DNA of 56,936 bases, taken from an uncultured Candidatus Saccharibacteria bacterium (lineage in GTDB: Bacteria; Patescibacteriota; Minisyncoccia; Phycocordibacterales; GWA1-40-21). Below, one piece after another: positions 4,812-56,936 of the stretch; positions within the stretch are counted from its first letter, which is position 1; every line of letters starts with the position of its first letter. Location: the NCBI GenBank assembly GCA_964567825.1, contig CAZMNX010000003.1, positions 1-56,936 on the forward strand, in the 5' to 3' direction. A model generated the notes under the pieces. The model did no database searches and was not told the origin of the DNA. It saw nothing but the letters and a program-made list of their open reading frames with translations. Both the position numbers and the translations under genes were made by a program.

Positions 4812-4860
4812 AAAAAAGCCCCAATCAAACCCAGGCCTGGGTGCGATCGGGGCTTTTTCC
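4812..4860 (+). terminator. intrinsic terminator closing island 1
   Basis: AAGCCCCaATC...GATCGGGGCTT stem with an inner CCCAGGCCTGGG palindrome, followed by a TTTTT run. Confidence 0.6.
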
Positions 4861-7261: not shown

Positions 7262-10200
7262 TTACACCAATTCCTTCACTTTATCCACAATAAGGCTAAT
7301 TTCGCCATTACGGAGCGAGACTTTGCCTTTTAAGGCGACGGCTTTGTCCTTAATAAGTAAAGATTTGAATTCGGTCATGGTGCGGGGGAAGACGACGACT
7401 TCGAGGGTGTCGCTGAAATCGGATAATTTTAGAAAGGCCATATTATCACCTTTTTTGGTGACGATGGCGCGGATATCTTCGATCATCCCGGCGACCACCA
7501 CTTCTTTACCATCTTCGAGTGCACCGCCATCTTTACCACCAGTTTTAATATTACTAATTTTATAATTTTTCTCGTCGATTACCTTTCGGAATTTATCGAG
7601 CGGATGACCGGAGAGGTACAAGCCAAGTAATTCGCGCTCCCAGTTTAATTTCTCGGTGGCGGTGGCCGGCGCCGCATCTTGGAGTTTGAAATTGTTCACA
7701 TCGGTATTAAGGCCGGGAATATAGGCGCCGAAAAGCGAATCTTGGTTTTCACTTTGCTTGCTGGCTTCTTTGGAATAGGTGAGCATATTTTCCACATTGG
7801 CCAGCATTTGTCCGCGTTCACCAAATTCATCCATCGCGCCAGCTTTGATCAGGGCTTCGAGCGACTTTTTATTTAAATTTTTATCTTTTATTCGATCCAG
7901 GAAATTAGAGAGGGAAGTAAACTTACCACCTTTTTTTCGCTCGGCGATTATTGTATTAGCGATACCCTCACCAAAGTTTTTGATGGTGGTGAGTCCGAAT
8001 CTAATCTTATCTTCACCCCGCACCGTCAGAACATCCTCGGAGCGATTAGGTACTCCGTTAAGCGGAGAGGGTGATTCTGACGGGGTGAGGGCGGTCGAAG
8101 AATTAAAAATGGCTTTGACCACCGTAAAATCCTGAAAGCTTTCATTCACGTTTGGTGGTAGCACCGGAATATCCATGCGCTTACAGTCGCCGATGAACTC
8201 GGCAATTTTTTCCACATCACCAGCATCGGCGGTAAGAACCGCGGACATATAAATGGCCGGGAAATTAGCTTTCATATAAGCGGTTTGATAGGCCACCAAA
8301 CCATAGCTCGCCGCATGGGCTTTGTTGAAACCGTAACCTTGGAATGGCTCAAACAATTTCCACAAGGCTTCGGCTTTCGCTTCGGTCATGCCACCATTTT
8401 TGACGCAACCTTCGACGAACTTCACATGTTGCTTGGCCATTTCTTCCGGAATTTTTTTACCGATGGCTTTGCGGAATTTATCCACTTCACCCCAAGTGTA
8501 GCCGGCCACTTCGATCGCGGTCATCAGCAAGTCGTCTTGATACACGAGCACGCCGAAAGTGGTGTCGAGAAAATCTTTCATCTTTGGATGAATATAAGAG
8601 GTTCTTTTTTCACCGTGTTTGCGGGCGATGTATTCTTGGATGTTGTCCATCGGGCCGGGGCGATACAGGGCCACCATCACGTTGATATCGTGAATGTTTG
8701 ACGGCTTCAAATCTTTTAAAGATTTAGTCATGCCTTGGCCGTTGAGTTGAAAGAGACCGGTGGTTTCGCCACGCGCCAGCATTTCAAAAGTTTTCTTATC
8801 ATCAATCGGAATATTTTCTAGGTCCACATCGATGTCCTCAATTATTTTTACTAAATCAACTGCGCTCGCCAAAATGGCCAAGTTTTTAATACCCAAAAAG
8901 TCAAACTTGAGCAAACCGGCATCCTCGATCGCATGCATATCGTATTGGGTAATGATTTTTTCTTCACCCTTGGTATCAAACTGCAGCGGAGTGAAATCGG
9001 TCAGGGGCCTCGGCGCCATCACCACCCCGGCGGCATGCACCGAGATGTGGCGAGCACAACCCTCCACTTTTTTTGCCATATCAATAATAGTTTTTACATC
9101 GGCTTCTTTTTCGTACATTTCTTTAAGCTCTGGGGTGTCTTTCAAGGCCCGATCGATCGTCATCGGAAAACCTTGTGCGCCCATCGGAATTAATTTCGAA
9201 ATGCGATCACCCAAGGTGTAGGGAAAGCCCATGGCGCGAGCCACATCTTTGACTGAACCACGTGCCATCATAGTACCAAAAGTACCAATCTGCGCCACTT
9301 TATCATTGCCATATTTTTTCTTGGCATATTCGATCACTTCATCACGGCGATTATCGGCATAATCCATATCGATATCGGGCGCGGACGGGCGTTCGGGGTT
9401 TAAGAATCTTTCGAACGGCAATTTATAATCAATTGGATCGACGTTGGTAATTTTTGTTAAGTATGTTGTAAGCGAGCCAGCGACCGAACCTCGGATGTTC
9501 GTTAAAATTTTATTCTCGTGAGCAAAACGCAATAAATCGGCTACCACCAAAAAGTATGGCGAGTAACCTTTATCTTTAATCACTTTGAGTTCGTATTCTA
9601 GCCTGTCTGTATATACTTTAGTTTGAGGCAAGTCGCGCACCTTGAATCCTTCATACGCTAAGCGTTTTAATTCTTCGTCACCAGTTAGGCCGCTTTCTAC
9701 TTTAAAATCCGGAAAAACCCAGGAACCGAGTTCTAAATCGAGCTCACACATATCTGCAATTCTCAAAGTATTTTCCAAAGCTTCGGGCGTGTCTTTAAAA
9801 AGCCCCTCTGCTCTTTCAGAATTAATAAAAGAAAAATCTTCCTCATTACCATCAGAATTACGATCAGAAAAATCACTGTTGGTATTTACCAGCATTAAAG
9901 TATCGCGCGCTTTTTTGTCCTCAGGATGTAAATAGTAAACATCGTGCGCGGCAACGAGGGGGGTGTTGGTTTCTTTAGCCAAATTCACAATCTTTTTCAT
10001 CGTTTCTTCATGGCCTTCAATTTCTGGATGATGCGTGAGTTCCAAGAAAAAGTTTTTTTCACCGTACACTTCTTTATACCAAGCCACTAATCTTTTAGCT
10101 TCTGACAAATCGCCATTTTTTAATGCTTGGGTGGTGGCACCAGAAAAAGAGGGCGAAATGCAAATCAAGCCAAACTTATGAGCTTCAATTAATTCTTTAT

Positions 10201-10564
10201 CAATACGGGGTTTGTAATAAAAACCTTCGAGGTTGGCCAGTGTCACCAATTTAATCAAATTTTTATAACCGTCTAAATCTTTGGCCAACAAAATTAAACG
10301 ACTGCGGCGATTATCTACTCCACCTTGTTTGTCTTTACGGGTGCGGGCGGCAACATACATATCAGCGCCGATAATTGGTTTGATCTCATTTTTTTTGCAG
10401 GTTTTATAAAACTCAATCGCGCCATACAAATTGGCATTGTCAGTTAAAGCCAAAGACGTCATTTCATTCTTCTTCGCCTCCTTCACCAAATCACTAATTT
10501 TCGGCAGGGCATTAAGCAGGGAATAGTGAGAATGGGTATGTAGGTGAATAAATTTCGACGGCAT
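7262..10564 (-). CDS. dnaE: DNA polymerase III alpha subunit
   Basis: 1100 aa. The PHP domain starts FIHLHTHSHYSLL, followed by polymerase core motifs and a C-terminal OB fold. Confidence 0.95.
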   Translation of the reverse strand: MPSKFIHLHTHSHYSLLNALPKISDLVKEAKKNEMTSLALTDNANLYGAIEFYKTCKKNEIKPIIGADMYVAARTRKDKQGGVDNRRSRLILLAKDLDGYKNLIKLVTLANLEGFYYKPRIDKELIEAHKFGLICISPSFSGATTQALKNGDLSEAKRLVAWYKEVYGEKNFFLELTHHPEIEGHEETMKKIVNLAKETNTPLVAAHDVYYLHPEDKKARDTLMLVNTNSDFSDRNSDGNEEDFSFINSERAEGLFKDTPEALENTLRIADMCELDLELGSWVFPDFKVESGLTGDEELKRLAYEGFKVRDLPQTKVYTDRLEYELKVIKDKGYSPYFLVVADLLRFAHENKILTNIRGSVAGSLTTYLTKITNVDPIDYKLPFERFLNPERPSAPDIDMDYADNRRDEVIEYAKKKYGNDKVAQIGTFGTMMARGSVKDVARAMGFPYTLGDRISKLIPMGAQGFPMTIDRALKDTPELKEMYEKEADVKTIIDMAKKVEGCARHISVHAAGVVMAPRPLTDFTPLQFDTKGEEKIITQYDMHAIEDAGLLKFDFLGIKNLAILASAVDLVKIIEDIDVDLENIPIDDKKTFEMLARGETTGLFQLNGQGMTKSLKDLKPSNIHDINVMVALYRPGPMDNIQEYIARKHGEKRTSYIHPKMKDFLDTTFGVLVYQDDLLMTAIEVAGYTWGEVDKFRKAIGKKIPEEMAKQHVKFVEGCVKNGGMTEAKAEALWKLFEPFQGYGFNKAHAASYGLVAYQTAYMKANFPAIYMSAVLTADAGDVEKIAEFIGDCKRMDIPVLPPNVNESFQDFTVVKAIFNSSTALTPSESPSPLNGVPNRSEDVLTVRGEDKIRFGLTTIKNFGEGIANTIIAERKKGGKFTSLSNFLDRIKDKNLNKKSLEALIKAGAMDEFGERGQMLANVENMLTYSKEASKQSENQDSLFGAYIPGLNTDVNNFKLQDAAPATATEKLNWERELLGLYLSGHPLDKFRKVIDEKNYKISNIKTGGKDGGALEDGKEVVVAGMIEDIRAIVTKKGDNMAFLKLSDFSDTLEVVVFPRTMTEFKSLLIKDKAVALKGKVSLRNGEISLIVDKVKELV
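7281..7289 (+). promoter_or_regulatory. perfect DnaA-box consensus TTATCCACA (inside the dnaE 3' end)
   Basis: Exact 9-mer, 26 nt from the inverted box at 7247-7255. Confidence 0.4.
8014..8087 (-). repeat. palindromic in-frame repeat element, copy A (inside dnaE)
   Basis: Reverse strand: CCGTCAGAAtcaccCTCTCCGcTTAACGGAGTACCTAATCgCTCCGAGgatgTTCTGACGG. A 34-nt core matches 32/34 to the truB copy, and the terminal inverted repeats pair with each other. Confidence 0.75.
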
Positions 10565-20101: not shown

Positions 20102-20147
20102 AAAACAAAACCGCCTCTCGCAATAAAGCGGGAAGCGGTTTTGTTTT
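20102..20147. terminator. bidirectional intrinsic terminator
   Basis: 13-bp stem AAAACAAAACCGC/GCGGTTTTGTTTT with T-runs on both strands. It lies between the convergent lipase locus and csp. Confidence 0.6.
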
Positions 20148-31361: not shown

Positions 31362-34300
31362 ATGAAGACAATAAAAGACGAACTAGAAATTGTTGGAAAA
31401 GTTCGGAAGATTGCTCAGACGCTGGCAGAAAAGGTGGTGATTGTTTCTCGGCCGCAAAATGCCGAGGCTTTTTTGACCAATAGTCGTAAAAAGGTAATCC
31501 AGACAGAGAAGGTCTATCAAAAATTAATTCGACAAGTTAAGGATTATAAACATCTAACTCATGAAGTCGAAAATCTTTTAGATAATTATTACATTATTTC
31601 TGGCGCGGTTGCCGATGTCTTAAACAGTAGGGTTAAAAAGGGTTTTCGTAAATTGGTTTTGGTTGAAAGAACCCCAGATTTCTTTATACCAAGGATTTAT
31701 GTAGTCTTGAATGATTTACTCAAGGCTTCTGATTATACTGTAAATCGAAATATTTTATATGAATTTTTGTCTGTTTATCAGGCTAAAGCCTCATTATCTA
31801 TTCGGGAACTCGGTTTCGTCTCTTATATTTTGCGTACGATCCTGATTGAAAAAATTGAGGAAGTGATGCATAAGTCAATTGCTTCACTCGACGAATTTAA
31901 GGATGCTGAATACTGGTTTGATCAAATTGTAAAAAAGGGCGAAAAAAAATTAGAGACTAATTATTCAAAGCTGACTTCGAGTTTGGCCAATCGTTATGGT
32001 GTGATTCCAGCTAATCTCGGCTTTCATTTATTGCAGAAGTTGTCACAATACGGGCCCGACACCCGGCCGATAGTAAAATGGCTGAAACTAAACCTTTTGA
32101 AACAAGGTATCGATATCACCGATTTGGCCGAAATCGAAAACAAGAGGCAAAATAACATTTCTCTAAGGATTTCAAATATTATTGATAGCTTGCGTTGGAT
32201 TAATCAGGTTCGTTGGGACGATTTTATTGTTGATGTTAATACGGTGGATAGTATTTTGGATAAGGATCCTGCTCAAACTTATTCAATTTTAGATCAGAGC
32301 AGTCAAAATATTTATCGAAATGAAGTGGTAAAAATTGGTGATCGGGCTGGTGTCCATGAATCGGAGATTGCCAAATTAGCCTTAAAGCTTTGCCAAGCAG
32401 ACGGACACGTCGGTTATTACTTGGTTGGTGATGGACGCCAAGAGTTAGAGCGACGCATCGGTTATAAGCGATCATTTTTTGAGCATTTAAAAACCTTTGT
32501 CTTAAAAAAAGCAACGGCTGTTTATTTAGGTGCCATTATTTTAATTAATATCTTATTAACGGCTCTAATTATTTCGATTTATCCAGCCTTGTGGAGTGGG
32601 GCGATAGTCACCTCTATTTTATTGCTACTGATTTTTATAATTAATTCCGATATCACAGTTAATTTGATTCATTTATTTATTAGTATATTTATACCTGTCC
32701 GACCACTGTTTCGTTTGGATCTTAGTGAGGGAGTTTCAGTCCTGCAAAGTACTTTTGTTGTTATACCGTCAATGTTGCGTGATGAAAAAAGCACTAAGGA
32801 ATTGCTTAAGCGGCTTGAAGTGAATTATCTCGGTAATTCTAGTTCCAATATTTACTATGCTTTACTAATGGATTATAAGGACGCAAAGGCCGAGAATCTT
32901 TCTGGCGACGAAGCTCTGTTTAGGCAGATGCAGCAAGGTATTGATGAGCTGAATAATAAATATTCGACTGACAAACAAAAATTTTATTTGTTTCATCGAC
33001 GACGATTATGGAATCCCAACGAAAATATTTTTATGGGCTGGGAACGCAAGCGCGGTAAACTACACGAGTTTAATTTACTATTAAGGGGCAATGCCGAAAC
33101 CTCATATATTGAGGATGTACCGACCGATCTGGGTTTTATTAAGTACATTCTAACTATTGATGAAGATACCCGTTTACCCAAGGACTCAGCGATTAAGTTG
33201 ATTGGTTGTATCGATCATCCCTTGAATCGTCCGGTAGTTAATAAAACAGTTGGAAAGGTGGTTAGCGGCTATGGAATCATTCAGCCAAGAATGACCACTA
33301 AATTTGAGACGGCGCTTGCCACACCCTTCTCTAAAATTTTTTCCTCAGCCATGGGTATCGATTCCTATTCTGGGCCGGTGGCTGATATTTACCAAGATTT
33401 ATTTGGTAACAGTATCTTTTTTGGTAAGGGCATTTATGACATTGATGCAATGGAGGCTGTTGTCGGTAATCGTTTACCCGATAATCAAATTCTAAGTCAC
33501 GATTTACTTGAGGGTTTACATACGCGAGTTGGTTTTGCAACCGATATTTTCTTATTTGAAGGCTTTCCCGAAAGTTATAAGGAGTATAGCCTGCGTACGC
33601 ATCGCTGGATTCGTGGCGATTGGCAAATCGTTGATTTTCTTCATTCAAAGGTTCTTTCGGTTGGTGACAAGTGGAAAATTTTTGACAACTTACGTCGTAG
33701 TTTGATGCCGGTTTTTTTAGTAATCTTTTTACTTACTTCCTACGGTTTTTTCCCAGAATTTTATTATCAGGCATTCATTTATTCTTTATTGGTAATTGGC
33801 TCATCTCAAGTAATCAATTATCTCTTCCGATTTTTTATTTGGCCCAAAGAAATGACTTTAATGATGAAGATTTATGCCTTACTTACCGAATTAGATGCAC
33901 TGTTTATTCAAGTAGTTTATCGTTTTATTTTTCTTCTTGATCAAGCTCTGATCGCCTTAAGGGCAATTAGTGTTTCTTTATACCGTTTGCTGATCAGCCA
34001 TCGTCACATGTTGCTTTGGCAAAACTCTCATGAAGTGGCTAAAAACTTGAAGGGGACACAAAGAGAGTTCTTCTATCTAATGTCGCCAACCATAATTGCG
34101 TCAGTCGTTTGTCTTGTGTGGTTTATAAATTTTCATCATTTTTTCTCTTATTATCTGACGGTTATTTTATGGTTGTCATCACCTCTCGTAGCTTATCATA
34201 TTAGTCGAGTAAAAAAGAATAAACAATTTAAAACAGCTGATATCAATTTTTTGCGAGGCATTGCTTGTCGCTCAAGCCGCTTCTTCCTAGAGTTTTCCAG

Positions 34301-37300
34301 CCGAGAGGGAAATCATTTAATTCCGGACCATCATCAGGAGGAACCTGTTACCAATTCACCCGCGGCAACTTCACCGACTAATATTGGTATGCATTTATTA
34401 TCTAATTTTTCCGCTTATGATTTTGGTCACATTAGTTTTATCAATCTAGGTAGTCGTTTGCTCGAATCTTTTCAAAGCTTGAATTCACTCGAAAGATTTA
34501 AAGGGCATTTTTACAATTGGTATGATATTCGTACTTTGCAGGTTTTAAACCCCCGCTACGTTTCAAGCGTTGATAGCGCGAATTTACTACTTGTTTTTCT
34601 AACCCTTAAACAGGGTTTGTTTGATATTATGGCTAAGCCAATTATTAGCGATTCAAGCCTCAAAGGGTTTGCGGATATCCTGTCTGTAATTATTGAGGAC
34701 GCTAATTTAATCATTAAGCAGTCGAATATTTCTAAAGCCGATAAAAGATTGGCCCGTAATATTGTTAGTCAGGCTAAATTAGCACTAGAGAGATTACAAA
34801 ATCAGAAGGGGACTTTGACTATTGAAATTTTAATTAAAATTTTTGAACATTTGGCAGAAAGTAATGAAAAGGTAAAGAAAATTGTGAGCAGTTTAAATCT
34901 TGGTCTGAATAAGGGCACCTTGTCTAGCATTTATTCGAGTACTGAACATTTTAATACTCTCTTGCATCAACAAAGGGAGGAGATTAATAGTTTTATGCCG
35001 TTTTACCGCGCTCGACGAGCTGAGCCGGCTATTCGTAATTTAAAACAAAATTCGAATTTGGCTAAAGCCTTTCATCTTATTCTTAAAAATCTTAATTCAA
35101 TACCAACTCTTGATTATTTATCCGGAACTCTTCGGTCGGAATTACAGTCGCTTAACTTCGTTAATTTAATACACTCCGCTGATCTTGATAAGAACGAGAA
35201 AGAGGTTGTCGAAGGCTGGTACTTGGGCATGCTTGATAATGTTTCGCAGGCCGAGAGTCGGGCACTAAAGACCCGAGGTGAATATCTTTACTTGATCTCA
35301 CTCTGTGAAAAATTCTTTAACGAGGCAGATTTTAAATTCCTATATAATGAAGAGCGCGGTTTATTTCATATTGGTTACAACGCTACCTTTGATAAAGTTG
35401 ATAATTCCTACTACGATTTTTTGGCCTCAGAAGCTAACTCAGTTAGCTTCGTTGCTATTATTAAAAATGAGGTTCCGTTAAAACACTGGTTTTACTTGGG
35501 CCGTAAATTGGTGCGTCTAGATTATAAAACTGTTGGTCTGGCCTCCTGGGGCGGATCACTTTTTGAGTATTTAACCTCGCTTATTTTCTTTAAGGTCCAT
35601 AATCATTCATTATTAGGGCAAGCCGCGAACGTGGCTATAAATAGTCATATTAAATATGCTAGAAACTTTGAAGTGCCCTGGGGTATGGGTGAATCAGCCT
35701 ATTCCGCTCTCGACCTTAATAACAACTATCAATATCAAATTTTTGGCCATCCATCATTGGGTTTTAGACGTGATTTAAAGGACTTCCTGGTGGTTGCCCC
35801 ATATACCACCATGATGGCTTTAGCCTTCAAACCAAAACAAGCTTTAGCTAATTTGAAGAGATTAGTTCAGGACAATTTTCTGGGTCGTTATGGTTTTTAT
35901 GATGCGATTGATTATAACGTCACCCTAAAAACTAACAAAAATAAAATTGGCCAACCCGCTAAAATTTATTATGCTCATCATCAGGGTTTTGCTTTGCAGG
36001 CATTAAATAATCAGATTAATCAGGATCGAATTAGGAATTTGTTTATGTCCGATCCTCGAGTTCAAATGCTCGATGCTTTATTGGAAGAGAAGGTGCCTTC
36101 GACTATTCCAGCTAAGCCAATCGAAAATCTTGAGCGTCTACCAGTCGAATATTTAGTTTCTCGAGATGAAACAGATACTGTTAGACAATTTATTCCGCTT
36201 TATACCTCCTATCCGCGTCGCGCCTTCATCTCTAACGGAAATTACAGTATTAATATTAGCAATACCGGCGCTGGCGGCAGCAAATTCAACGATATTAATT
36301 TAACTCGTTTTCGTGAAGATACGGTTATTGAACCTTGGGGTCAGTTTATCTATTTGACCGATACGGTGAAAAAAGATCGTTGGTCGCCAACGACGGAGCC
36401 GACCGGTCTATCCTTGGGCAAAAACAAGATTGAATATTTTGAAAATAAGGCTCACTTTAATAAGATTTATAGTGATATTGAGAGTTCGCTCCTAATTGCT
36501 ATGGCTAGTGAGGATAATGCCGAATTTCGTTCCTTAACACTTACTAACCATAGTAAGGAAAAGCGAGAAATAGAAGTAACCAGCTACGGCGAAGTCGCCT
36601 TATCGAAAGATGGTGATGATTTACACCATCCAGCTTTTGAAAAACTTTTCGTCAAAAGCGAATTTATTTCAAAGTATAAGGCCTTAGTTTATAGTCGTCA
36701 TAATAAAGATGAGCGTGGTCAAAAAATACTTTTTGCTCATCGCTTTTATACTTCTCAGGCGGGCAAAGCAGAATATGCGCATACAACTGATCGGCGGGAA
36801 TTTGTCGGTCGTGGTGGTTCGGTTGGGGAACCGGCCATATTAAGAAATTCTTCTAGGTCAGTTCATTCGGCAACCGGTCATAATTTTGATCAAATTTTCT
36901 GTTTCCAAAATAAAATTACACTCGAGCCAAATCAAACCGTTAATATTACCTACGTTAATGTTTTTGCTAATTCTGTTGAAGGTTTGAATGCCAGTTTAAA
37001 GAAATATGATAATTCAAGACTCGTTAATAACACTATTAAAAAGTCTGATAAGCAGAGCGGTGATATCATTCGTAATCTCGGCCTATCAGCTGAACTGGCC
37101 CTGCAGTATCAAGGCCTAGCTTCTCGTTTATTATCACCTCACTATCCACATCTAGCTAAAAAGTTTAATGTTGATTCCGCGGCGCCAGCGGTAGAAACTC
37201 TTTGGCGACTTGGTTTGTCTGGTGATTTGCCGATTTTATTAATAAGGTTTTATGATTTAAATGATTTACCGTTAGTTAAAAACATTTTGCTGGCTCATAA

Positions 37301-40037
37301 ATATTTAAAATATAAGGGGATTGCCCATGATCTTGTTTTGTTGAATGAATATCCGGCTAGTTATATCAAGTCCTTTGAAGATGAGGTTGATTTCTTGATT
37401 CGTTACAATCAGGCGCCAGTTAGTAAGTATAAGCTGGGAAATGTTTTTCATTTGCGAACATCACATTTAACCGTAGTTGATACAAATAATTTATTAGCTT
37501 TAGCCAAGATCATTATTGATAGTAAGGATGGTCCACTTGAGCAACAAATAAGCCTACTATTGCAGTCGGGAACGAGGCCGGAGGTTGGAGACTATCTTAA
37601 GGCTGGTCGTAAGATTGGCTCGATTGGTCGCGATGTTTATCCAAAATTATCCAACCTAAAATTTTATAATGGATTGGGTGGCTTTGATGAAAAAAGATTA
37701 GAATATGTTCTAAATATTAACTATAATAAAGAATTAATAACCCCTAAACCGTGGGTAAACATTATTGCTAATCCTAATATTGGCTTCATTGTCACGGAGA
37801 GTGGATCGATGTATACCTGGCTATACGACAGTTATGACAATCGCTTAACTAAACGCCTCGATGATCCACTTACAGATCGCAGTAGCGAAGTCTTTTACGT
37901 GCGTGACGAAGAGACTGGCGAATTTTGGAATCCAACACCCTTACCAATTAGAAATTCTCAAACCTATAATATTAGACACGGTTTGGGCTACACCAATATT
38001 TCACATAAAAGCCGTGGTCTCGAACAAACTCTGCTCGCCTATGTACCAGTAAGCGATGCTGTTAAAATTTTACGCTTTAAATTTAAAAACCTGAGCAAAA
38101 TAGCGAAGAAGCTGTCCTTGACTGGTTTCTTTGAAATGTCTATTGGCGGAGCTAATCGTGAACATACGAAGGATTATTTAGAGACTCAAATTGAAGCGGA
38201 AACCAAGGCGATCTTTGTAAAAAATATTTATGGTTCATCATTTAAGAATGTTCTAGCCTTTATTGATTTTAATCAAGGTGATTTTATTGTAACGAATGAT
38301 CGCGAAGAATTTTTAGGCAAAAATGGCAATACAGATAATCCGGCGGCTTTAAAGAGAAATAAATTATCTAATACTCTTAATAAAGATGTTGATCATTGTG
38401 TCGCTGGACAAACTTTTTTTGATCTTGAGCCTGGAGCTGAAAAAGAAATTGTTATTTTAATTGGTGGTGGCAGAAGTGGGGAGGAAGTCCAAAGTTTGAT
38501 AAGAAAATATAGAGTTTTGGAAAATACCGAACTGGTCTTTACTCAGGTTAAACAGGTTTGGCACGATCGCTTGAATCAGGTACAAATTAAAACACCAGAT
38601 GATTCTTTAAATATCTTGTTTAACTCCCGTCTTTTATACCAACTCATTTCCTCCCGGCTGCTGGGCCGAACTGGTTACTATCAACCTTCAGGTGCCTATG
38701 GCTTCCGTGATCAGTTGCAGGACTCGATGGCATTAGTTTGGTCAGATCCAAGTAAGACCAGAGAGTATATTTTACGGGCCGCTAAACATCAGTTTATTGA
38801 AGGTGATGTTCAAAATTGGTGGCACGAACATAATTCCTTTGGTGTCAGAACAATGTTTTCTGATCAGCAATTGTGGTTGCCATATGTTCTTATTCATTAT
38901 TTCGAAGTCACTGATGATGAAAATATTTTATCTGAACAGATACCCTATATGAAGGGCCCATTACTAGATTTTATCAATAATCCTAATTGGGCTGGAGTGC
39001 CTGAAACTACTTCTGAAACCTTTGATCTTTATGATCATTGCTTGCGAGCAATCGAAAAGACTTTTAATTTTGGTAAAAATGGCTTGCCGCTTATTGGTAA
39101 CGGTGATTGGAATGATGGCTTAAATAAAATCGGGGAGCGTGGTTTGGGTGAGAGTGTTTGGCTCGGTTGGTTTTTAGCTAATGTTGTCGAAAAATTTATT
39201 CCGATTGTCAGATTGCGTGGCGATCAGGACCGAATCAAGAAATACGAACTAACGTTGAAAAATTTACGAAGATCTCTAGAGCAAAAAACCTGGGATGGAC
39301 GTTGGTATAAACGAGCCTTTTTTGATAGTGGTAGCAGTCTTGGTTCTCGTTCAAATAATGAGTTTAAAATTGATTCGGTCGCTCAGTCTTGGTCAGTATT
39401 ATCGCATCAAGCAAGGCCGGAGCGGGCCAAGATGGCCATGAGTGCCGTTTTGAAAAATTTAAATCAAGAAGAAAATAATCTTTGGTTATTACTTTCACCG
39501 GCCGTAAGCAATTCGACAATGGATCCTGGCTATATCAGAGACTATCCCGCTGGTGTTCGAGAAAATGGAGCACAATACAATCACGCTGCCCTTTGGGCCG
39601 CCCAAGCCTTCGCCGAGTTGAAAGATTCTGATTCAGTAATGAAAATTGTTGATAGTGTGAATCCGATCAAGCGTTCGCTAGATAAGCAGAAAGTTGATTT
39701 ATATCAGGTTGAACCATATGCCGTGGCGTCGGATATTTACGCCAAGCCGAGCGTGGCTGGGCGCGGTGGCTGGACTTGGTATACCGGTTCAGCGGGGGTG
39801 ATGTATCGCACAATCCTCGAAAGTATTTTAGGTATAAAAGTTAAAGGAGATAAAATGGAGATCAATCCTTGTGTGCCTAAAGACTGGCCCGAATTTTCAG
39901 TCGTTTATATTTATAAAAATACAAAATATAATATCACTGTACTAAACGCCAGCAGTGTAATTGATAGCTTATTGTCAAAAAGAACCATTCACCTGATTGA
40001 CGACGGCAAAACACATAATGTCGAGATAAAATTATAG
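31362..40037 (+). CDS. cgs: cyclic beta-1,2-glucan synthase-like giant protein (GT84 glycosyltransferase + TM region + GH94 phosphorylase domain)
   Basis: 2891 aa. DxD in ILTIDEDTRLP, and HRWIRGDWQ (Q/RxxRW-type) flanked by TM blocks. C-terminal GH94 signatures YGFRDQLQD and GNGDWNDGLN. Size and order match Cgs/NdvB/ChvB. Confidence 0.85.
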   Translation: MKTIKDELEIVGKVRKIAQTLAEKVVIVSRPQNAEAFLTNSRKKVIQTEKVYQKLIRQVKDYKHLTHEVENLLDNYYIISGAVADVLNSRVKKGFRKLVLVERTPDFFIPRIYVVLNDLLKASDYTVNRNILYEFLSVYQAKASLSIRELGFVSYILRTILIEKIEEVMHKSIASLDEFKDAEYWFDQIVKKGEKKLETNYSKLTSSLANRYGVIPANLGFHLLQKLSQYGPDTRPIVKWLKLNLLKQGIDITDLAEIENKRQNNISLRISNIIDSLRWINQVRWDDFIVDVNTVDSILDKDPAQTYSILDQSSQNIYRNEVVKIGDRAGVHESEIAKLALKLCQADGHVGYYLVGDGRQELERRIGYKRSFFEHLKTFVLKKATAVYLGAIILINILLTALIISIYPALWSGAIVTSILLLLIFIINSDITVNLIHLFISIFIPVRPLFRLDLSEGVSVLQSTFVVIPSMLRDEKSTKELLKRLEVNYLGNSSSNIYYALLMDYKDAKAENLSGDEALFRQMQQGIDELNNKYSTDKQKFYLFHRRRLWNPNENIFMGWERKRGKLHEFNLLLRGNAETSYIEDVPTDLGFIKYILTIDEDTRLPKDSAIKLIGCIDHPLNRPVVNKTVGKVVSGYGIIQPRMTTKFETALATPFSKIFSSAMGIDSYSGPVADIYQDLFGNSIFFGKGIYDIDAMEAVVGNRLPDNQILSHDLLEGLHTRVGFATDIFLFEGFPESYKEYSLRTHRWIRGDWQIVDFLHSKVLSVGDKWKIFDNLRRSLMPVFLVIFLLTSYGFFPEFYYQAFIYSLLVIGSSQVINYLFRFFIWPKEMTLMMKIYALLTELDALFIQVVYRFIFLLDQALIALRAISVSLYRLLISHRHMLLWQNSHEVAKNLKGTQREFFYLMSPTIIASVVCLVWFINFHHFFSYYLTVILWLSSPLVAYHISRVKKNKQFKTADINFLRGIACRSSRFFLEFSSREGNHLIPDHHQEEPVTNSPAATSPTNIGMHLLSNFSAYDFGHISFINLGSRLLESFQSLNSLERFKGHFYNWYDIRTLQVLNPRYVSSVDSANLLLVFLTLKQGLFDIMAKPIISDSSLKGFADILSVIIEDANLIIKQSNISKADKRLARNIVSQAKLALERLQNQKGTLTIEILIKIFEHLAESNEKVKKIVSSLNLGLNKGTLSSIYSSTEHFNTLLHQQREEINSFMPFYRARRAEPAIRNLKQNSNLAKAFHLILKNLNSIPTLDYLSGTLRSELQSLNFVNLIHSADLDKNEKEVVEGWYLGMLDNVSQAESRALKTRGEYLYLISLCEKFFNEADFKFLYNEERGLFHIGYNATFDKVDNSYYDFLASEANSVSFVAIIKNEVPLKHWFYLGRKLVRLDYKTVGLASWGGSLFEYLTSLIFFKVHNHSLLGQAANVAINSHIKYARNFEVPWGMGESAYSALDLNNNYQYQIFGHPSLGFRRDLKDFLVVAPYTTMMALAFKPKQALANLKRLVQDNFLGRYGFYDAIDYNVTLKTNKNKIGQPAKIYYAHHQGFALQALNNQINQDRIRNLFMSDPRVQMLDALLEEKVPSTIPAKPIENLERLPVEYLVSRDETDTVRQFIPLYTSYPRRAFISNGNYSINISNTGAGGSKFNDINLTRFREDTVIEPWGQFIYLTDTVKKDRWSPTTEPTGLSLGKNKIEYFENKAHFNKIYSDIESSLLIAMASEDNAEFRSLTLTNHSKEKREIEVTSYGEVALSKDGDDLHHPAFEKLFVKSEFISKYKALVYSRHNKDERGQKILFAHRFYTSQAGKAEYAHTTDRREFVGRGGSVGEPAILRNSSRSVHSATGHNFDQIFCFQNKITLEPNQTVNITYVNVFANSVEGLNASLKKYDNSRLVNNTIKKSDKQSGDIIRNLGLSAELALQYQGLASRLLSPHYPHLAKKFNVDSAAPAVETLWRLGLSGDLPILLIRFYDLNDLPLVKNILLAHKYLKYKGIAHDLVLLNEYPASYIKSFEDEVDFLIRYNQAPVSKYKLGNVFHLRTSHLTVVDTNNLLALAKIIIDSKDGPLEQQISLLLQSGTRPEVGDYLKAGRKIGSIGRDVYPKLSNLKFYNGLGGFDEKRLEYVLNINYNKELITPKPWVNIIANPNIGFIVTESGSMYTWLYDSYDNRLTKRLDDPLTDRSSEVFYVRDEETGEFWNPTPLPIRNSQTYNIRHGLGYTNISHKSRGLEQTLLAYVPVSDAVKILRFKFKNLSKIAKKLSLTGFFEMSIGGANREHTKDYLETQIEAETKAIFVKNIYGSSFKNVLAFIDFNQGDFIVTNDREEFLGKNGNTDNPAALKRNKLSNTLNKDVDHCVAGQTFFDLEPGAEKEIVILIGGGRSGEEVQSLIRKYRVLENTELVFTQVKQVWHDRLNQVQIKTPDDSLNILFNSRLLYQLISSRLLGRTGYYQPSGAYGFRDQLQDSMALVWSDPSKTREYILRAAKHQFIEGDVQNWWHEHNSFGVRTMFSDQQLWLPYVLIHYFEVTDDENILSEQIPYMKGPLLDFINNPNWAGVPETTSETFDLYDHCLRAIEKTFNFGKNGLPLIGNGDWNDGLNKIGERGLGESVWLGWFLANVVEKFIPIVRLRGDQDRIKKYELTLKNLRRSLEQKTWDGRWYKRAFFDSGSSLGSRSNNEFKIDSVAQSWSVLSHQARPERAKMAMSAVLKNLNQEENNLWLLLSPAVSNSTMDPGYIRDYPAGVRENGAQYNHAALWAAQAFAELKDSDSVMKIVDSVNPIKRSLDKQKVDLYQVEPYAVASDIYAKPSVAGRGGWTWYTGSAGVMYRTILESILGIKVKGDKMEINPCVPKDWPEFSVVYIYKNTKYNITVLNASSVIDSLLSKRTIHLIDDGKTHNVEIKL

Positions 40038-40038
40038 T

Positions 40039-40641
40039 TTACCACCAACCCTTTTTATAGATTTTAATTCTAGCTTCTGGAACGGTTTTATACTTAGGAT
40101 TTTTGATTAGTGTTGGCTGGCCCTCCTTTTCTACCACAAAATAAGCAAAGCCACCCATTTTTTTGACTGGTTCATAATCAGCGTGGCCGGGCATACCAAC
40201 CGGATCGGCATCGTCTTTATAAACCGGGCTATCATCGGAGGTTACTAACCAAACGTCTCCGGTGTTGACCATCAAATGCCCAATTTCGGGATTAATAAAA
40301 ATCTTGTCGCCAGCCTTGACCGACAAAGCTTTAAACTCAACTATTTCATCATCAACTGGTTTTCCATCAGTTCCAATCTTTCTTTTTTGTAATAACAAAA
40401 TTCCCGTGCCCTGTAAAATAGTATAAGTTTCTGAAATATTACCCACGTGATAATGGCCGTAAGTTTTGATGTATTCCTTACCTAAGGCTCCATCAACAGT
40501 GCCGCTTTCCCAGACCGTAATATTAGTCTTCTCTTTTCCCCCACGAATCATATAATAGTGCACGTTTGGACCACTAGCCTCTGGACTAGCCAGCACCTCC
40601 TGCATTTTTTCGTGACTTCTCTCGGCAAATGGTTTGAACAT
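40039..40641 (-). CDS. cupin-type glucose-6-phosphate isomerase (archaeal-type PGI)
   Basis: GKEYIKTYGHYHVGNISETYTIL and INPEIGHLMVN fit the cPGI cupin motifs TxGHxH...E and PxxxHxxxN. Confidence 0.6.
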   Translation of the reverse strand: MFKPFAERSHEKMQEVLASPEASGPNVHYYMIRGGKEKTNITVWESGTVDGALGKEYIKTYGHYHVGNISETYTILQGTGILLLQKRKIGTDGKPVDDEIVEFKALSVKAGDKIFINPEIGHLMVNTGDVWLVTSDDSPVYKDDADPVGMPGHADYEPVKKMGGFAYFVVEKEGQPTLIKNPKYKTVPEARIKIYKKGWW

Positions 40642-43702: not shown

Positions 43703-44530
43703 ATGACTTTTTTACAATCAGCGATCTTGGGTCTAGTTCAAGGTTTGACGGAGTTTATTCCGGTCTCTTCAACTGGACATTTGATTTTAGCAAGAAGGCT
43801 TTTGGGACTTGATTTGGTGGGTACGATTTCTTTTGATGCCATTATCCAACTCGCAACCGCTTTCGCCTTAATCTGTTATTTTTGGCGAGATATCAAGAAT
43901 TTAATTATCGCTTTATTTTGTGTTATTACCAGAAAACCAGCGGAGGAAAAATATCGACATTTAATTTTACCCTTGATTATTGGTACAATTCCCGCGATCA
44001 TTTTAGGATTGCTGTTGGAAAAATATATGGATACATATTTTCGTGGCGTTGTGGTGGTCGCTGGTTCGTTAATCGCTGGAAGTATTTTATTTTTCTTTGC
44101 TGAAAGAACTGCCAAAAGAAAATCCCTTGTTCCATCACCAATTGGCACAAACTACGAAAATATTACAATTAAAAAAGGTATATTAATTGGTTTATTTCAA
44201 TGCCTCGCTTTGGTTCCAGGCTTTTCTCGTTCTGGTGCCACGATCTCCGGCGGTCTCTTTACTGGTTTAAATAGGGAAGAGGCGGCACGTTTCAGCTTTT
44301 TACTTTCTATTCCAATTATTCTCGGTTCCGGTTTGAAAAGTGTTTGGGACATTCATAAGACAGGCTCCTTAGCATCTCTCGAACACTCACTCATTATTGC
44401 CTGCATTTTTGCCTTTATTTCAGGCCTCCTCGCCATCCACTTCTTACTCAAATTCCTCAAAAACCACTCACTTAACTATTTCGGCGTTTATCGAATTATA
44501 TTAGCGATTGTTATTTTGATACTTTTGTAA
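43703..44530 (+). CDS. uppP: undecaprenyl-diphosphate phosphatase
   Basis: BacA motifs GLTEFIPVSSTGHL and PGFSRSGATISG. Confidence 0.9.
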   Translation: MTFLQSAILGLVQGLTEFIPVSSTGHLILARRLLGLDLVGTISFDAIIQLATAFALICYFWRDIKNLIIALFCVITRKPAEEKYRHLILPLIIGTIPAIILGLLLEKYMDTYFRGVVVVAGSLIAGSILFFFAERTAKRKSLVPSPIGTNYENITIKKGILIGLFQCLALVPGFSRSGATISGGLFTGLNREEAARFSFLLSIPIILGSGLKSVWDIHKTGSLASLEHSLIIACIFAFISGLLAIHFLLKFLKNHSLNYFGVYRIILAIVILILL

Positions 44531-47096: not shown

Positions 47097-47837
47097 ATGC
47101 CAAAAACGAAAGTCTTAAAATTATATAAGATAGTAGGTGAAACGCCACTCGAATGTCTTAGTCGGTTTCGTAAAGCCAATTCAGAATATAAGCATGAGAA
47201 AATGACTTATGCTGGACGTCTCGATCCAATGGCCGAAGGGGTGCTTTTGGTGCTGGTTGGGGAAGAATGTAAGAATAAAGATAAGTATTTAGCTTTTGAT
47301 AAAGAATATGAAATGGATGTTTTGTTTGGTTTCGCGACTGATACTTATGATCTGCTTGGTTTGGTTAAAAAACAATCGACCAGAATATTCTCTCCGTTTA
47401 ACGGAGTACCTAATCACTCCGAGAAAATTCTGGTCGATTTTTTTGTTAAAAAATTTAAACAAAAGTACCCACCCTATTCTTCTCGTTATTTTGCTAAGGC
47501 AAGAAGTGGAAAATTAGTCAACGATGAAATTTTAAGTAAGGAAGTAGAAATTTACAGCATTAAACTTTTGAAAAATAAAAATATTTCTAAAAAGTCTTTA
47601 CATAACTATATTATTAAATCAGTAAATAAGGTGAAGGGGGATTTTCGTCAAAAGAAAATTTTGGCTAAATGGAAGTTGATATTGGACAAGAGTAAGCTGA
47701 AAAAGTTTCCAGTTATATCGCTTAAAATAAAGTGTTCTAGTGGCACCTATATGCGCTCCTTAGCCTATAATATTGGAAACGAGGTTGGGGTGCCCTCATC
47801 TGTTTTACGGCTTAAAAGAACGAGAATTTATCAATAA
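47097..47837 (+). CDS. truB: tRNA pseudouridine(55) synthase
   Basis: YAGRLDPMAEGVLLVLVGE (catalytic Asp), YPPYSS, and CSSGTYMRSL. Confidence 0.85.
   Translation: MPKTKVLKLYKIVGETPLECLSRFRKANSEYKHEKMTYAGRLDPMAEGVLLVLVGEECKNKDKYLAFDKEYEMDVLFGFATDTYDLLGLVKKQSTRIFSPFNGVPNHSEKILVDFFVKKFKQKYPPYSSRYFAKARSGKLVNDEILSKEVEIYSIKLLKNKNISKKSLHNYIIKSVNKVKGDFRQKKILAKWKLILDKSKLKKFPVISLKIKCSSGTYMRSLAYNIGNEVGVPSSVLRLKRTRIYQ
47375..47438 (+). repeat. palindromic in-frame repeat element, copy B (inside truB)
   Basis: ATCGACCAGAATattCTCTCCGtTTAACGGAGTACCTAATCaCTCCGAGaaaATTCTGGTCGAT. It has 12-bp perfect terminal inverted repeats and the same core as the dnaE copy. Confidence 0.75.
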
Positions 47838-54395: not shown

Positions 54396-55583
54396 ATGAG
54401 CCAGAAATTTTTAGTTGTAAATAGCGGCAGTGCTTCGCATAAACACGCTTTGTATCAGGATGATGAGTGTCAGTATTTTATTCATTTCGAAATGATTGGT
54501 GCTGATTATGTTGCTCATGAGAAAATTGCTAATCAAACTCGCGATCTAGATATTTCTGAAAAGATATTTACTAAATCGATTGAGTATACCATTGCTCGAT
54601 TATTAGAAAATAAAATTATTGCTGATAAAAAAGATTTGGCGGCGATTGGTATTCGCGTGGTGGCACCCGGAACTTTTTTTCAGGAACATCGCCTGATTGA
54701 TAAGGAGTATGAAAAGAAATTAAAACAGGATTTACGCGAATCACCCTTGCATATTAAATCTGTTTTACTGGAATTAAAATTTATAAAAAAAGTTTTGTCT
54801 AAGGTGCCCATTGTGGGAATTTCTGATTCCGCCTTTCACAAAACTATGCCTGATTTGGCCCGATATTATGCTATTCCGGTTGAAACTAGCCGAAAGTACG
54901 GTATTTATAAGTATGGCTATCATGGTCTCTCAATACAATCAGTTGTGGGTCGCTTAAAGGCTCGTTATGGCCAGTTGCCCCCTAAGGTGGTCGTTTGTCA
55001 TTTAGGCGGGGGAGCCAGCGTTACGGCCGTTTTAAATGGTCAAAGCTTAGATAATTCCATGGGTTTTACTCCGACTGATGGCCTAGTGATGGCAAGTCGA
55101 GTTGGTAATGTTGACCCAGGTGCCGTGGTTTATTTAAGCGAAAAATTGGGCAAAAGAGACGGTAAAATGATGGATTATTTTAATAAAGAATGTGGTTTAC
55201 TTGGCCTCAGCAATGGTAAGAGCGACGATATTCGTGAGCTATTGAAAAATGAGCAGGCGGGGGATGCTGATTCAAAACTAGCTTTGGATGTGTATGCTTA
55301 TCGCGTCAAAAAATATATCGCTCAGGCGGTGGGTGCCCTTGGCGGAATTGATGCTTTGGTTTTTGCTGGCACAGTTGGCGAGCGTTCCATGCCGATGCGC
55401 AAAAGAATCTGCCATAATATGGAATTTTTTGGTTTGAAACTAAATGATGAATTGAATGATAAAACTGATGCCATTGAGGCCGAAATAAATACTCCTGATT
55501 CCAGGACTAAAATTACTATTATTAAGACAGACGAGATGGGGGAGATTGCCAGGGAAACGGTTAAAGTCGTTTCTTCAAACTAG
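54396..55583 (+). CDS. ackA: acetate kinase
   Basis: LVVNSGSASHKH, YGYHGLS and GGIDALVFAGTVGE. Confidence 0.93.
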   Translation: MSQKFLVVNSGSASHKHALYQDDECQYFIHFEMIGADYVAHEKIANQTRDLDISEKIFTKSIEYTIARLLENKIIADKKDLAAIGIRVVAPGTFFQEHRLIDKEYEKKLKQDLRESPLHIKSVLLELKFIKKVLSKVPIVGISDSAFHKTMPDLARYYAIPVETSRKYGIYKYGYHGLSIQSVVGRLKARYGQLPPKVVVCHLGGGASVTAVLNGQSLDNSMGFTPTDGLVMASRVGNVDPGAVVYLSEKLGKRDGKMMDYFNKECGLLGLSNGKSDDIRELLKNEQAGDADSKLALDVYAYRVKKYIAQAVGALGGIDALVFAGTVGERSMPMRKRICHNMEFFGLKLNDELNDKTDAIEAEINTPDSRTKITIIKTDEMGEIARETVKVVSSN

Positions 55584-56862: not shown

Positions 56863-56936
56863 TCCGGTGTGGCGCAGTGGTAGCGCAGTCGCCTGTTAAG
56901 CGATTGGTCGTTGGTTCGAATCCAACCGCCGGAGCC
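56863..56936 (+). tRNA. tRNA-Asn (anticodon GTT), reaching the window end
   Basis: Hand-folded cloverleaf: acceptor TCCGGTG/CGCCGGA, D arm GCGC-agtggta-GCGC, anticodon arm GTCGC-CTGTTAA-GCGAT, T arm GTTGG-TTCGAAT-CCAAC, discriminator G, then CC. Confidence 0.9.

Follow-up and report, generated by a model that had tools for sequence, protein, structure and literature searches.

A dispersed, hairpin-forming repeat family found in dnaE, truB and intergenic spacers of Patescibacteria

Introduction

Why should two unrelated essential genes of one bacterium share a palindromic stretch of nucleotides? The question is raised by a 56,936-nucleotide (nt) stretch of DNA, here called the window (contig CAZMNX010000003.1, positions 1 to 56,936 of the forward strand, assembly GCA_964567825.1), in which such an element lies within dnaE, the gene for DNA polymerase III alpha, and again within truB, the gene for tRNA pseudouridine-55 synthase. 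An earlier note, made from the sequence alone, had reported the shared stretch and likened it to the palindromic elements of Rickettsia. The two sequences are copies of an undescribed family of dispersed, non-autonomous, hairpin-forming repeats. The best-supported account, and one we consider likely, is that the whole hairpin is copied from site to site, that copies within genes are translated, and that template switching both keeps up the stem and reshapes it.

Two copies of one hairpin in the window

The first host gene, dnaE (7262..10564, minus strand), is an open reading frame (ORF) of 1100 residues whose product contains the Pfam domains PHP, DNA_pol3_alpha, finger, HHH_6 and OB. The second, truB (47097..47837, plus strand), is a 246-residue ORF with the Pfam domain TruB_N and matches to TruB chains in the PDB. 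On their sense strands the two copies share the pattern CTCTCCG-Y-TTAACGGAGTACCTAATC-R-CTCCGAG, which forms a 34-nt core at 8036..8069 (minus strand) in dnaE and 47390..47423 (plus strand) in truB. The shared sequence was found where the earlier note had placed it, with 32 of 34 core positions identical and a longest exact run of 18 nt. The two differences (C/T and G/A) together make a compensating base pair that closes the loop. Read from its 5′ side, the dnaE core consists of CTC, a TCC mismatch, a GC closure, an 18-nt loop (8044-8061), and then GC, TCC and GAG; in truB the loop spans 47398-47415 and its closing pairs are G-C and T-A. With up to three mismatches allowed, the window contains just two occurrences of the 18-mer, where shuffled sequences predict 0.05, and the expected number of chance occurrences of the 34-nt pattern is 0.00.

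Each core is the tip of a long hairpin. In dnaE the whole hairpin, as delimited by folding, covers 8011..8097 (minus strand), with arms CCCTCACCCCGTCAGAATCACC and GGATGTTCTGACGGTGCGGGGTGAAG and the sense-strand sequence GTCAGAATCACC-CTCTCCGCTTAACGGAGTACCTAATCGCTCCGAG-GATGTTCTGAC. It is held in a variable loop of DnaE between the segments FTVVK and KIRFGL (8008..8113, minus strand), placed by alignment with four relatives (L029, L030, L031 and L035; loci outside the window are cited by such numbers). The truB copy reads ACCAGAATATT-CTCTCCGTTTAACGGAGTACCTAATCACTCCGAG-AAAATTCTGGT and extends over 47360..47453 (plus strand) by its inverted repeat and fold, after which seven T residues follow; its arms (47360-47392 and 47421-47453) are 33 nt each and 82% complementary. 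Folding of the two regions gives a long hairpin in both, at -38.9 kcal/mol (z = -2.7) for dnaE and -32.5 kcal/mol (z = -5.4) for truB. A covariance model of the family, described below, matches 8021-8085 with 70.2 bits and 47374-47439 with 87.1 bits. The outer arms differ between the two copies in a compensatory fashion, as had been noted. The foot of the truB hairpin together with its T tract (47421-47460) has the appearance of a strong intrinsic terminator, although it stands midway through a gene that is intact.

Both copies are in the sense orientation and their cores are read in the same phase, giving SP(L/F)NGVPN(R/H)SE; if translated, they would give peptides spanning SPFNGVPNHSEK or SPLNGVPNRSED. 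The flanking CAGAAT falls in different codon phases in the two genes because of a 1-nt length difference (CACC in one, ATT in the other), again in agreement with the earlier note.

Extent and anatomy of the family

The family was sought in one genome per species, in metagenome stretches and in viral contigs. An exact scan with the 18-mer returned 28 loci in the genomes, 26 of them real, and a gapped pattern with a free loop centre returned 37 genome loci and 94 metagenome stretches; viral contigs gave 0 matches to the gapped pattern. A covariance model built from 27 copies found extra diverged copies within these loci. In all, the family numbers 139 unique copies, spread over about 50 sites. 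In the window, with filters off, the model found none beyond dnaE and truB, its weaker matches being ordinary terminators. Among the weak matches are terminator-like palindromes with A/T tracts at 20102-20147, 4813-4858 and 728-769, which lack the family apex.

The copies come from about eight related metagenome-assembled genomes (MAGs) of Patescibacteria and from lake or groundwater metagenome contigs, at a density of approximately one per 15-30 kb. The MAGs were labelled 'Saccharibacteria' by their submitter, and the relatives of their DnaE proteins are labelled Paceibacterota, Taylorbacteria or Parcubacteria. The family is limited to one narrow clade within the Patescibacteria, most likely the Paceibacteria. 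One element-bearing contig of 1.8 kb (L020, CAZSZH010000130.1) belongs to a 'Flavobacterium' MAG; it is probably mis-binned, since it is orthologous to a locus (L010) of a Patescibacteria MAG. An assembly artefact was considered and rejected, as orthologous copies recur in independent assemblies with their reading frames kept. A search of the window and of both copies against Rfam 15 gave no family match: only tRNA reached its gathering score, and the copies returned sub-threshold matches to generic microRNA-like hairpins. The tRNA gene lies at the extreme end of the window (56863-56934, plus strand; RF00005, 70 bits). The earlier note knew of no description for this kind of genome, and none of such elements was found in the literature searched on the Candidate Phyla Radiation (CPR) or Patescibacteria.

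Every inspected copy forms a long hairpin, and it is this hairpin in its entirety, some 65-100 nt, that is copied. The apical loop, TTAACG-N4-6-CTAATC, is 16-18 nt long, and its commonest centres are GAGTAC (n = 48) and CGGA (n = 44). It is closed by two base pairs (GC/GC, GT/AC, AC/GT or AT/AT) that are paired in 98.5-100% of copies. Below this closure is a conserved 3x3 pyrimidine mismatch, 5′-TNC/5′-TNC and mostly TCC/TCC, followed by CTC/GAG pairs, or CTT/AAG in one subfamily. The remainder is a Watson-Crick stem of 20-30 bp that differs at every locus apart from a semi-conserved (G/A)GAA...TTC(C/T) step. The outer arms, which the earlier note had called terminal inverted repeats, are indeed complementary within a copy; they are not of the transposon type, being the least conserved part of the element. 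The mutually exclusive CTCCG/CGGAG/CTCCG hairpins proposed in the same note are present in the dnaE and truB copies and are limited to the GAGTAC subfamily, as CGGAG is missing from the 44 copies with a 16-nt loop. A switch built on these alternative hairpins was rejected, given their absence from the 16-nt-loop subfamily.

Two smaller hairpins were seen in or near copies of the family. A 21-nt mini-hairpin (CTGCCTCGACGGCAAGGCGGG) is nested in the variable loop centre of one copy (L172, 4275-4360), so the loop centre can accept further insertions. Upstream of the element in a loop of uppP, at about 4400-4440 of L008 and at the equivalent place in L158 and L179, lies another, CCCCCTC-CTTAAC(T/C)AA(T/A)-GAGGGGG, translated PSLTNEGGE. 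Its loop in L008 resembles the two conserved loop ends (TTAAC and TAAT) without a centre.

Gain and loss of whole hairpins

Comparison of filled with empty sites indicates what is gained and lost. The dnaE site is empty in the closest relatives (L029, L030, L031 and L035, 72-75% identical), where 4-6 residues stand in place of the 35 of the window. The extra DnaE loop that had been noticed is 29 residues longer than in its closest relatives and is lineage-specific, and among the relatives with an empty site is a MAG in which the family occurs at other loci. In murC, L013 and L015 have a filled N-terminal site and L026 a cleanly empty one, the net difference being about 87 nt including GC-rich arms; at a second murC site one MAG has an intact copy and another (L015) a decayed one. 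In a gene for an S-adenosylmethionine (SAM)-methyltransferase, L010 has the element where L020 has an empty site.

The window itself has empty sites. Its uppP (BacA) gene (43703..44530, plus strand) lacks the element that ten relatives carry in the central loop in either orientation, and its acetate-kinase-like gene (54396..55583, plus strand; named by sequence inspection) lacks the one that L173 and L193 carry about 45 codons in. A third empty site is the junction of two convergent genes with stops at 40037 and 40039 (39983..40075, no strand assigned), where L126 has a full element with A/T tracts. One of these genes is a 2891-residue ORF (31362-40037, plus strand) that ends one base from the stop of its convergent neighbour (40039..40641).

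Empty sites in dnaE relatives and in other genes imply that the family moves, and the filled and empty versions together identify the whole hairpin as the unit gained or lost. Insertion of the core alone into the loops of pre-existing terminators was rejected: the empty murC, methyltransferase, dnaE and convergent-spacer sites are without any hairpin. Copying of full-length units also fits the likeness between the arms of the dnaE copy and those of a non-orthologous murC copy in L013 (CCCTCACCCCGTCAGAATCACC compared with CCCCGCCCCAGTGGAATCATCC).

Copies within genes

About 27% of the family (38 of 139 copies) lies inside long ORFs, in around 15 different housekeeping genes. Hosts confirmed by Pfam are dnaE, truB, uppP, gatB (GatB_Yqey), topA, murC (two sites), the SAM-methyltransferase gene and uvrC; leuS, comF-like, nifS-like, acetate-kinase-like, recJ and gatC hosts were named by sequence inspection alone. 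All 38 copies are crossed by a stop-free, in-phase ORF over some 100 nt of AT-rich sequence, and they would be translated as 20-30 extra residues. The core is used in two sense phases (...SPLNGVPNRSE... and ...LRLTEYLIAP..., the latter read as LTEYLIAP in the gatB, leuS, comF-like and uvrC genes) and in two antisense phases (...SERLGTPLSGE... and ...LGVIRYSVKRR...).

The diversity of frames bears on what is conserved. The identical phase and similar peptide in dnaE and truB could be taken for a shared protein motif, whether convergent or passed between the two genes through gene conversion of a stretch that codes for the peptide. The peptide is absent from close orthologues, however, the core is read in other phases and inverted in other genes, and about 70% of the copies are non-coding; the diversity of frame and orientation refutes the motif, which we give practically no credence. 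The earlier note's view that conservation acts on nucleotides rather than on protein is thus borne out. TruB relatives have unrelated sequence at the position of the element, again in favour of the note's interpretation. In truB, however, the element has not added length as it has in dnaE: the span from GL to QKYP is 32 residues, equal to that of relatives.

A hairpin within coding sequence, with two in-phase UAA triplets in the third frame of its loop, also recalls elements that are removed or skipped, such as a mini-intron or the byp elements bypassed in yeast mitochondria. Uninterrupted frames through every intragenic copy make splicing or bypass unnecessary. Moreover, the fewer frames a subfamily leaves open, the less often it is met in genes: with 16-nt loops a single sense frame is open, which all five intragenic copies of this subfamily use, and its copies are about fourfold rarer in genes than those with 18-nt loops. 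Where a hairpin has flipped within a gene (see below), the coding rule is kept, as the sole pair of phases open in both orientations is sense phase 1 with antisense phase 1, and this requires a C..G closure that avoids TGA. Removal or bypass is therefore very improbable, and translation of the in-gene copies is preferred.

The sites occupied in proteins are loops. The DnaE insertion falls between residues 883 and 885 of Thermus aquaticus Pol III alpha (PDB 2HPI), a one-residue turn, and other sites include the central loop of UppP and a linker of GatB. A single-sequence AlphaFold model of TruB has a predicted local distance difference test (pLDDT) score of 39, too poor for placing the segment. 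For CPR protein annotation, such extra loops would be repeats and not lineage signatures.

The same DnaE turn (FTVVK/IRFGL) carries unrelated long in-frame hairpin insertions in other Paceibacteria MAGs (L032 at 1501-2148, L049, L097, L103 and L107), with folding energies between -38 and -110 kcal/mol. Inserting palindromes into coding loops may, on this showing, be a general habit of Paceibacteria genomes.

Copies between genes

The larger part of the family, approximately 70% of copies, is non-coding and lies at the 3′ ends of genes with A/T tracts. The spacers concerned are short, and they are convergent in 29 cases, codirectional in 33 and divergent in 4. A T tract (at least 5 of 7 positions) follows the 3′ foot in 89% of intergenic copies against 55% of intragenic ones, and 79% of intergenic copies have a mirrored A tract as well. 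Strong T tracts (at least 6 of 7) mark 61% of intergenic and 13% of intragenic copies, the truB copy being among the latter. Intergenic copies thus bring together a stem and a U tract at gene 3′ ends, as do intrinsic (Rho-independent) terminators. Their loop of 16-18 nt and their 3x3 internal loop lie outside the short-loop (3-8 nt) definition of a terminator, and a consensus terminator scan did not call the truB copy because of its loop limit of 8 nt. Judged on these features, intergenic copies probably work as bidirectional hairpins resembling intrinsic terminators, which makes the family a candidate source of transcription terminators in compact CPR genomes.

Two copies back to back in one spacer are common. 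They are usually inverted, sometimes tandem, and frequently of different loop subfamilies (L006, 7132-7281; L140, 4117-4254; L148, 2231-2365; L152, 6981-7114; L178, 1376-1513; L185; L195). The spacer orthologous to the double copy of L006 in another locus (L027, 4140-4350) is without the family; in its place stands another, composite hairpin, about 150 nt long (-57 kcal/mol), that has a further hairpin nested in it.

Evolution of the stem

The covariation for which the earlier note had proposed a search is massive across the stems of the family. In the alignment of 27 copies, 88% of stem cells are paired and double changes occur at 20 of 21 pairs. In the alignment of 102 distinct sequences, pairing reaches 91% of stem cells and 600 cells are double changes, with 33-50% paired in slid controls; single stem positions show up to five pair types. 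Such a pattern would ordinarily speak for a structured RNA that benefits its host: a terminator or 3′-end hairpin whose apical and internal loops bind protein or RNA, whose stems are under selection for RNA pairing, and whose intragenic copies are collateral or regulatory. An invariant apex above covarying stems, the strong enrichment at gene 3′ ends with U tracts, a transcript-sense bias in coding and non-coding copies, and conservation of the apex between orthologous copies would all be expected of it.

The chemistry of the mismatches points elsewhere. G·T (G·U in RNA) makes up 22 of 2133 stem cells (1%) and 10% of the non-Watson-Crick cells, no more than single mutations would give; wobble pairs are therefore not enriched among non-Watson-Crick pairs, far from the pattern of a wobble-rich RNA helix. 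On the sense strand A·C mismatches dominate, the opposite of what selection for RNA pairing would leave (counts are given below). In addition, arms are made from inverted host coding sequence, orientation flips at the same site, copies decay or are absent from close relatives, the Rfam search gave no match, and a strong terminator inside truB or dnaE would do harm. A structured RNA under pairing selection is accordingly judged improbable, and the family is a caution against taking covariation as proof of RNA function.

The origin of the arms can be read at several sites. The 3′ arm of the truB copy (47421..47453, plus strand) is native coding sequence from GTCGATTTT on, where it encodes the helix VDFFVKKF; the segment aligns with a helix of T. 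maritima TruB, and relatives (L023, L028 and L008) read GTTGATTTT (VDF) there. The 5′ arm (47360-47392) carries an inverted copy (AATCGAC) of these native codons. Likewise, native GATAAAGAAG in the methyltransferase gene of L010 is mirrored by the inserted CTTCTTTATC. In L032, the DnaE turn holds a perfect 28-bp palindrome of a different family that is built on the host codons for FTVVKA.

Orthologous copies show the arms changing in step. Between the gatB copies of L009 and L019 there are eight differences in a 21-nt arm, each of them compensated, with flanks that are about 85% identical. The truB copy of the window and its orthologue in L204 differ by three compensatory double transitions within 9 bp of the outer stem, which turn VDF into ADC. 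Whole hairpins also flip. The uppP site has four copies in sense and six in antisense, and topA two and one; the case for flips relies on these two hand-checked genes, as automated clustering of sites is confounded by back-to-back copies. In uppP of L143 and L191, the imperfect arms are reverse-complemented and swapped, so that the whole hairpin has been inverted in place.

When template switching takes place between the arms of inverted repeats, its documented results are arms made alike, inverted spacers and expanded repeats (PMC8604942, PMC13100816, PMC7202029). Scarce G·U pairs, inverted host flank in the arms and flipped hairpins fit such switching at the DNA level better than selection on RNA structure. 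The stem 'covariation' would thus be due mainly to DNA-level template switching, and in the family the evolution of essential genes by template switching (dnaE, truB, gatB, topA and leuS among them) is recorded in nature with unusual clarity.

Proposed copying and maintenance of the element

Copying of whole hairpins combined with template switching suggests the following course. A copy that lands in a 3′ intergenic spacer would persist as a terminator-like hairpin, and one that lands in a gene would survive only in a permissive surface loop, in a stop-free frame and with a total length of 3n. At replication, template switching within the hairpin would copy one arm onto the other, producing arms that are specific to the locus and yet Watson-Crick paired. 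The same process would lengthen the stem outward, with inverted copies of the host flank added to it, and would occasionally flip the hairpin. The asymmetric apex (the TTAACG/CTAATC loop ends, the 2-bp closure and the TCC/TCC mismatch) is presumably recognised by a trans-acting factor or by the copying process, because it is the only part kept in sequence.

Several observations weigh against this account. The first is that no transposase adjoining copies, no target-site duplication and no autonomous parent were found at the examined loci, so that the word 'mobile' is owed to presence and absence of copies; four filled/empty comparisons have no consistent direct repeat, with a possible TTTGA at the murC site only. 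The second is orientation. The transcript-sense strand is favoured about 3:1 in genes and spacers alike (22 sense-only against 3 antisense-only sites), a bias that template switching alone does not give. In the window, GC skew has no sign change, yet the copy in dnaE and the one in truB are on different strands, both in sense, which for these two copies hints that the bias is tied to transcription rather than replication.

The remaining points concern the bases themselves. In the all-copy alignment (stem columns 2-10, with the three conserved-mismatch columns excluded), A·C/C·A outnumber G·T/T·G on the TTAACG (sense) strand by 56 to 15, or 48 to 14 (3.4:1) after clustering, which places the wobble pairs on the other strand. 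This A·C excess is a strand asymmetry opposite to that of deamination of an exposed sense strand or of RNA-pairing selection. The TCC/TCC mismatch is conserved although arm conversion should erase it. In orthologous pairs, divergence is about 11% at the 16 unascertained positions flanking the core, 30-40% in the arms and about 15% in coding flanks, which suggests that the apex is kept by purifying selection in situ, where a purely selfish, decaying insert predicts otherwise. Exact-match ascertainment exaggerates the conservation of the apex, and one decayed copy exists.

Some of these asymmetries would be natural for a single-stranded DNA hairpin mobilised by an enzyme, either a Y1/HUH transposase (as in REP/REPIN-RAYT or IS200/IS605-like systems) or an integrase acting on folded strands (as with attC), the apex and mismatches serving as recognition and strand-choice signals. 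Strict DNA-type complementarity, the strand asymmetries (A·C over G·T, and the sense bias), presence/absence polymorphism and the mini-hairpin nested in a loop centre agree with this. In attC sites and IS608 ends, asymmetric mismatches are set on a generic Watson-Crick stem, and the apex with its mismatches follows the same logic. No such gene adjoins any copy, however, and no split halves surround cargo, at the loci examined; in about 1.1 Mb of loci no solitary halves flanking cargo were found, the candidates being variants and chance matches. Known REP and IS200/IS605 ends keep their stem sequence and are extragenic, whereas the stems here vary and 27% of copies are intragenic, and the junctions at the murC, methyltransferase and convergent-spacer sites have no constant cleavage motif or target sequence. 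Mobilisation by an enzyme of these kinds appears rather unlikely.

A bolder idea, to which we assign a modest chance, is that of a mobile element defined by its apex and not by its ends. The hairpin tip would be recognised by a factor on one folded DNA strand and copied without a classical transposase, and each new copy would grow its own stem from inverted host flank. If so, and together with the unrelated hairpins in the DnaE loop, palindrome seeding and template switching could form a general engine that writes new terminators and protein loops into CPR genomes.

Comparison with known systems

Small hairpins that invade coding regions of compact genomes have precedents in organelles: the GC clusters and byp elements of yeast mitochondria, the double-hairpin elements of Allomyces and the repetitive hairpin-forming elements of sponges (PMC2800124). 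These differ in being organellar and GC-rich, and byp elements are bypassed instead of translated. We know of no conserved-apex, variable-stem design reported for any of them.

Among bacterial repeats, REP (repetitive extragenic palindromic) sequences and REPINs, IS200/IS605 elements and attC sites are hairpins that act as folded single strands. The present family could act in the same way, has DNA-type complementarity, and carries asymmetric unpaired bases that could mark the strand. REP and IS200/IS605 hairpins have conserved stems and are extragenic, unlike the family, whose stems vary, which has no GTAG and of which more than a quarter is intragenic. In attC sites it is the base (the R boxes) that is conserved and the apex that varies, the reverse of the gradient seen here. 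No association with RAYT, TnpA or integrase genes was seen at the examined loci, in a survey that included no dedicated RAYT search. The miniature transposable elements known as MITEs have conserved terminal inverted repeats; the arms of the family are complementary within a copy and unlike between copies.

Terminator-like dispersed hairpin repeats such as SPRITE are close to the family in behaviour, with a terminator-like stem and U tract and enrichment downstream of genes. They are usually bounded by target-site duplications and linked to parent insertion sequences. They also keep their terminal inverted repeat sequence, whereas the family has hypervariable stems, a loop of 16-18 nt and a conserved internal mismatch, and would have a quarter of its copies translated. 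Quasipalindrome template-switch mutagenesis produces the very changes found here between orthologous copies, namely arm homogenisation, spacer inversion and outward expansion (PMC7202029, PMC8604942, PMC13100816). It is a mutational process and not an element, and it does not account for the arrival of a conserved apex at about 50 sites.

The closest parallel in behaviour is provided by the Rickettsia palindromic elements (RPEs), reportedly described by Ogata et al. in 2000 and 2002. In both cases short, dispersed palindromic repeats of a host-associated bacterium with a reduced genome lie in frame in unrelated housekeeping genes as well as between genes, are tolerated in surface loops, probable ones in the present family, and have no known transposase. 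There are clear differences. The lineages are unrelated, and the likeness is one of behaviour and not drawn from sequence comparison. The elements of the family measure 65-100 nt, against about 100-150 bp for RPEs. RPE copies are understood to be alike along their whole length, whereas the family keeps only its asymmetric apex and has arms that are specific to the locus yet complementary. Furthermore, most of its copies look like bidirectional terminators, its arms take up inverted host flank and its hairpins flip. The RPE families (RPE-1 to RPE-10) are in-frame, dispersed and palindromic, with no known transposase (PMC10969869).

The likeness to RPEs proposed in the earlier note therefore holds as a description of behaviour, with the addition that most copies are intergenic and terminator-like. 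The family is an in-frame palindromic repeat, RPE-like in behaviour and newly seen in CPR bacteria. In-frame protein-coding palindromes have so far been treated as a peculiarity of Rickettsia; their occurrence in Paceibacteria, whose genomes are likewise tiny and whose DNA repair is limited, suggests that they are a recurrent outcome of extreme genome reduction.

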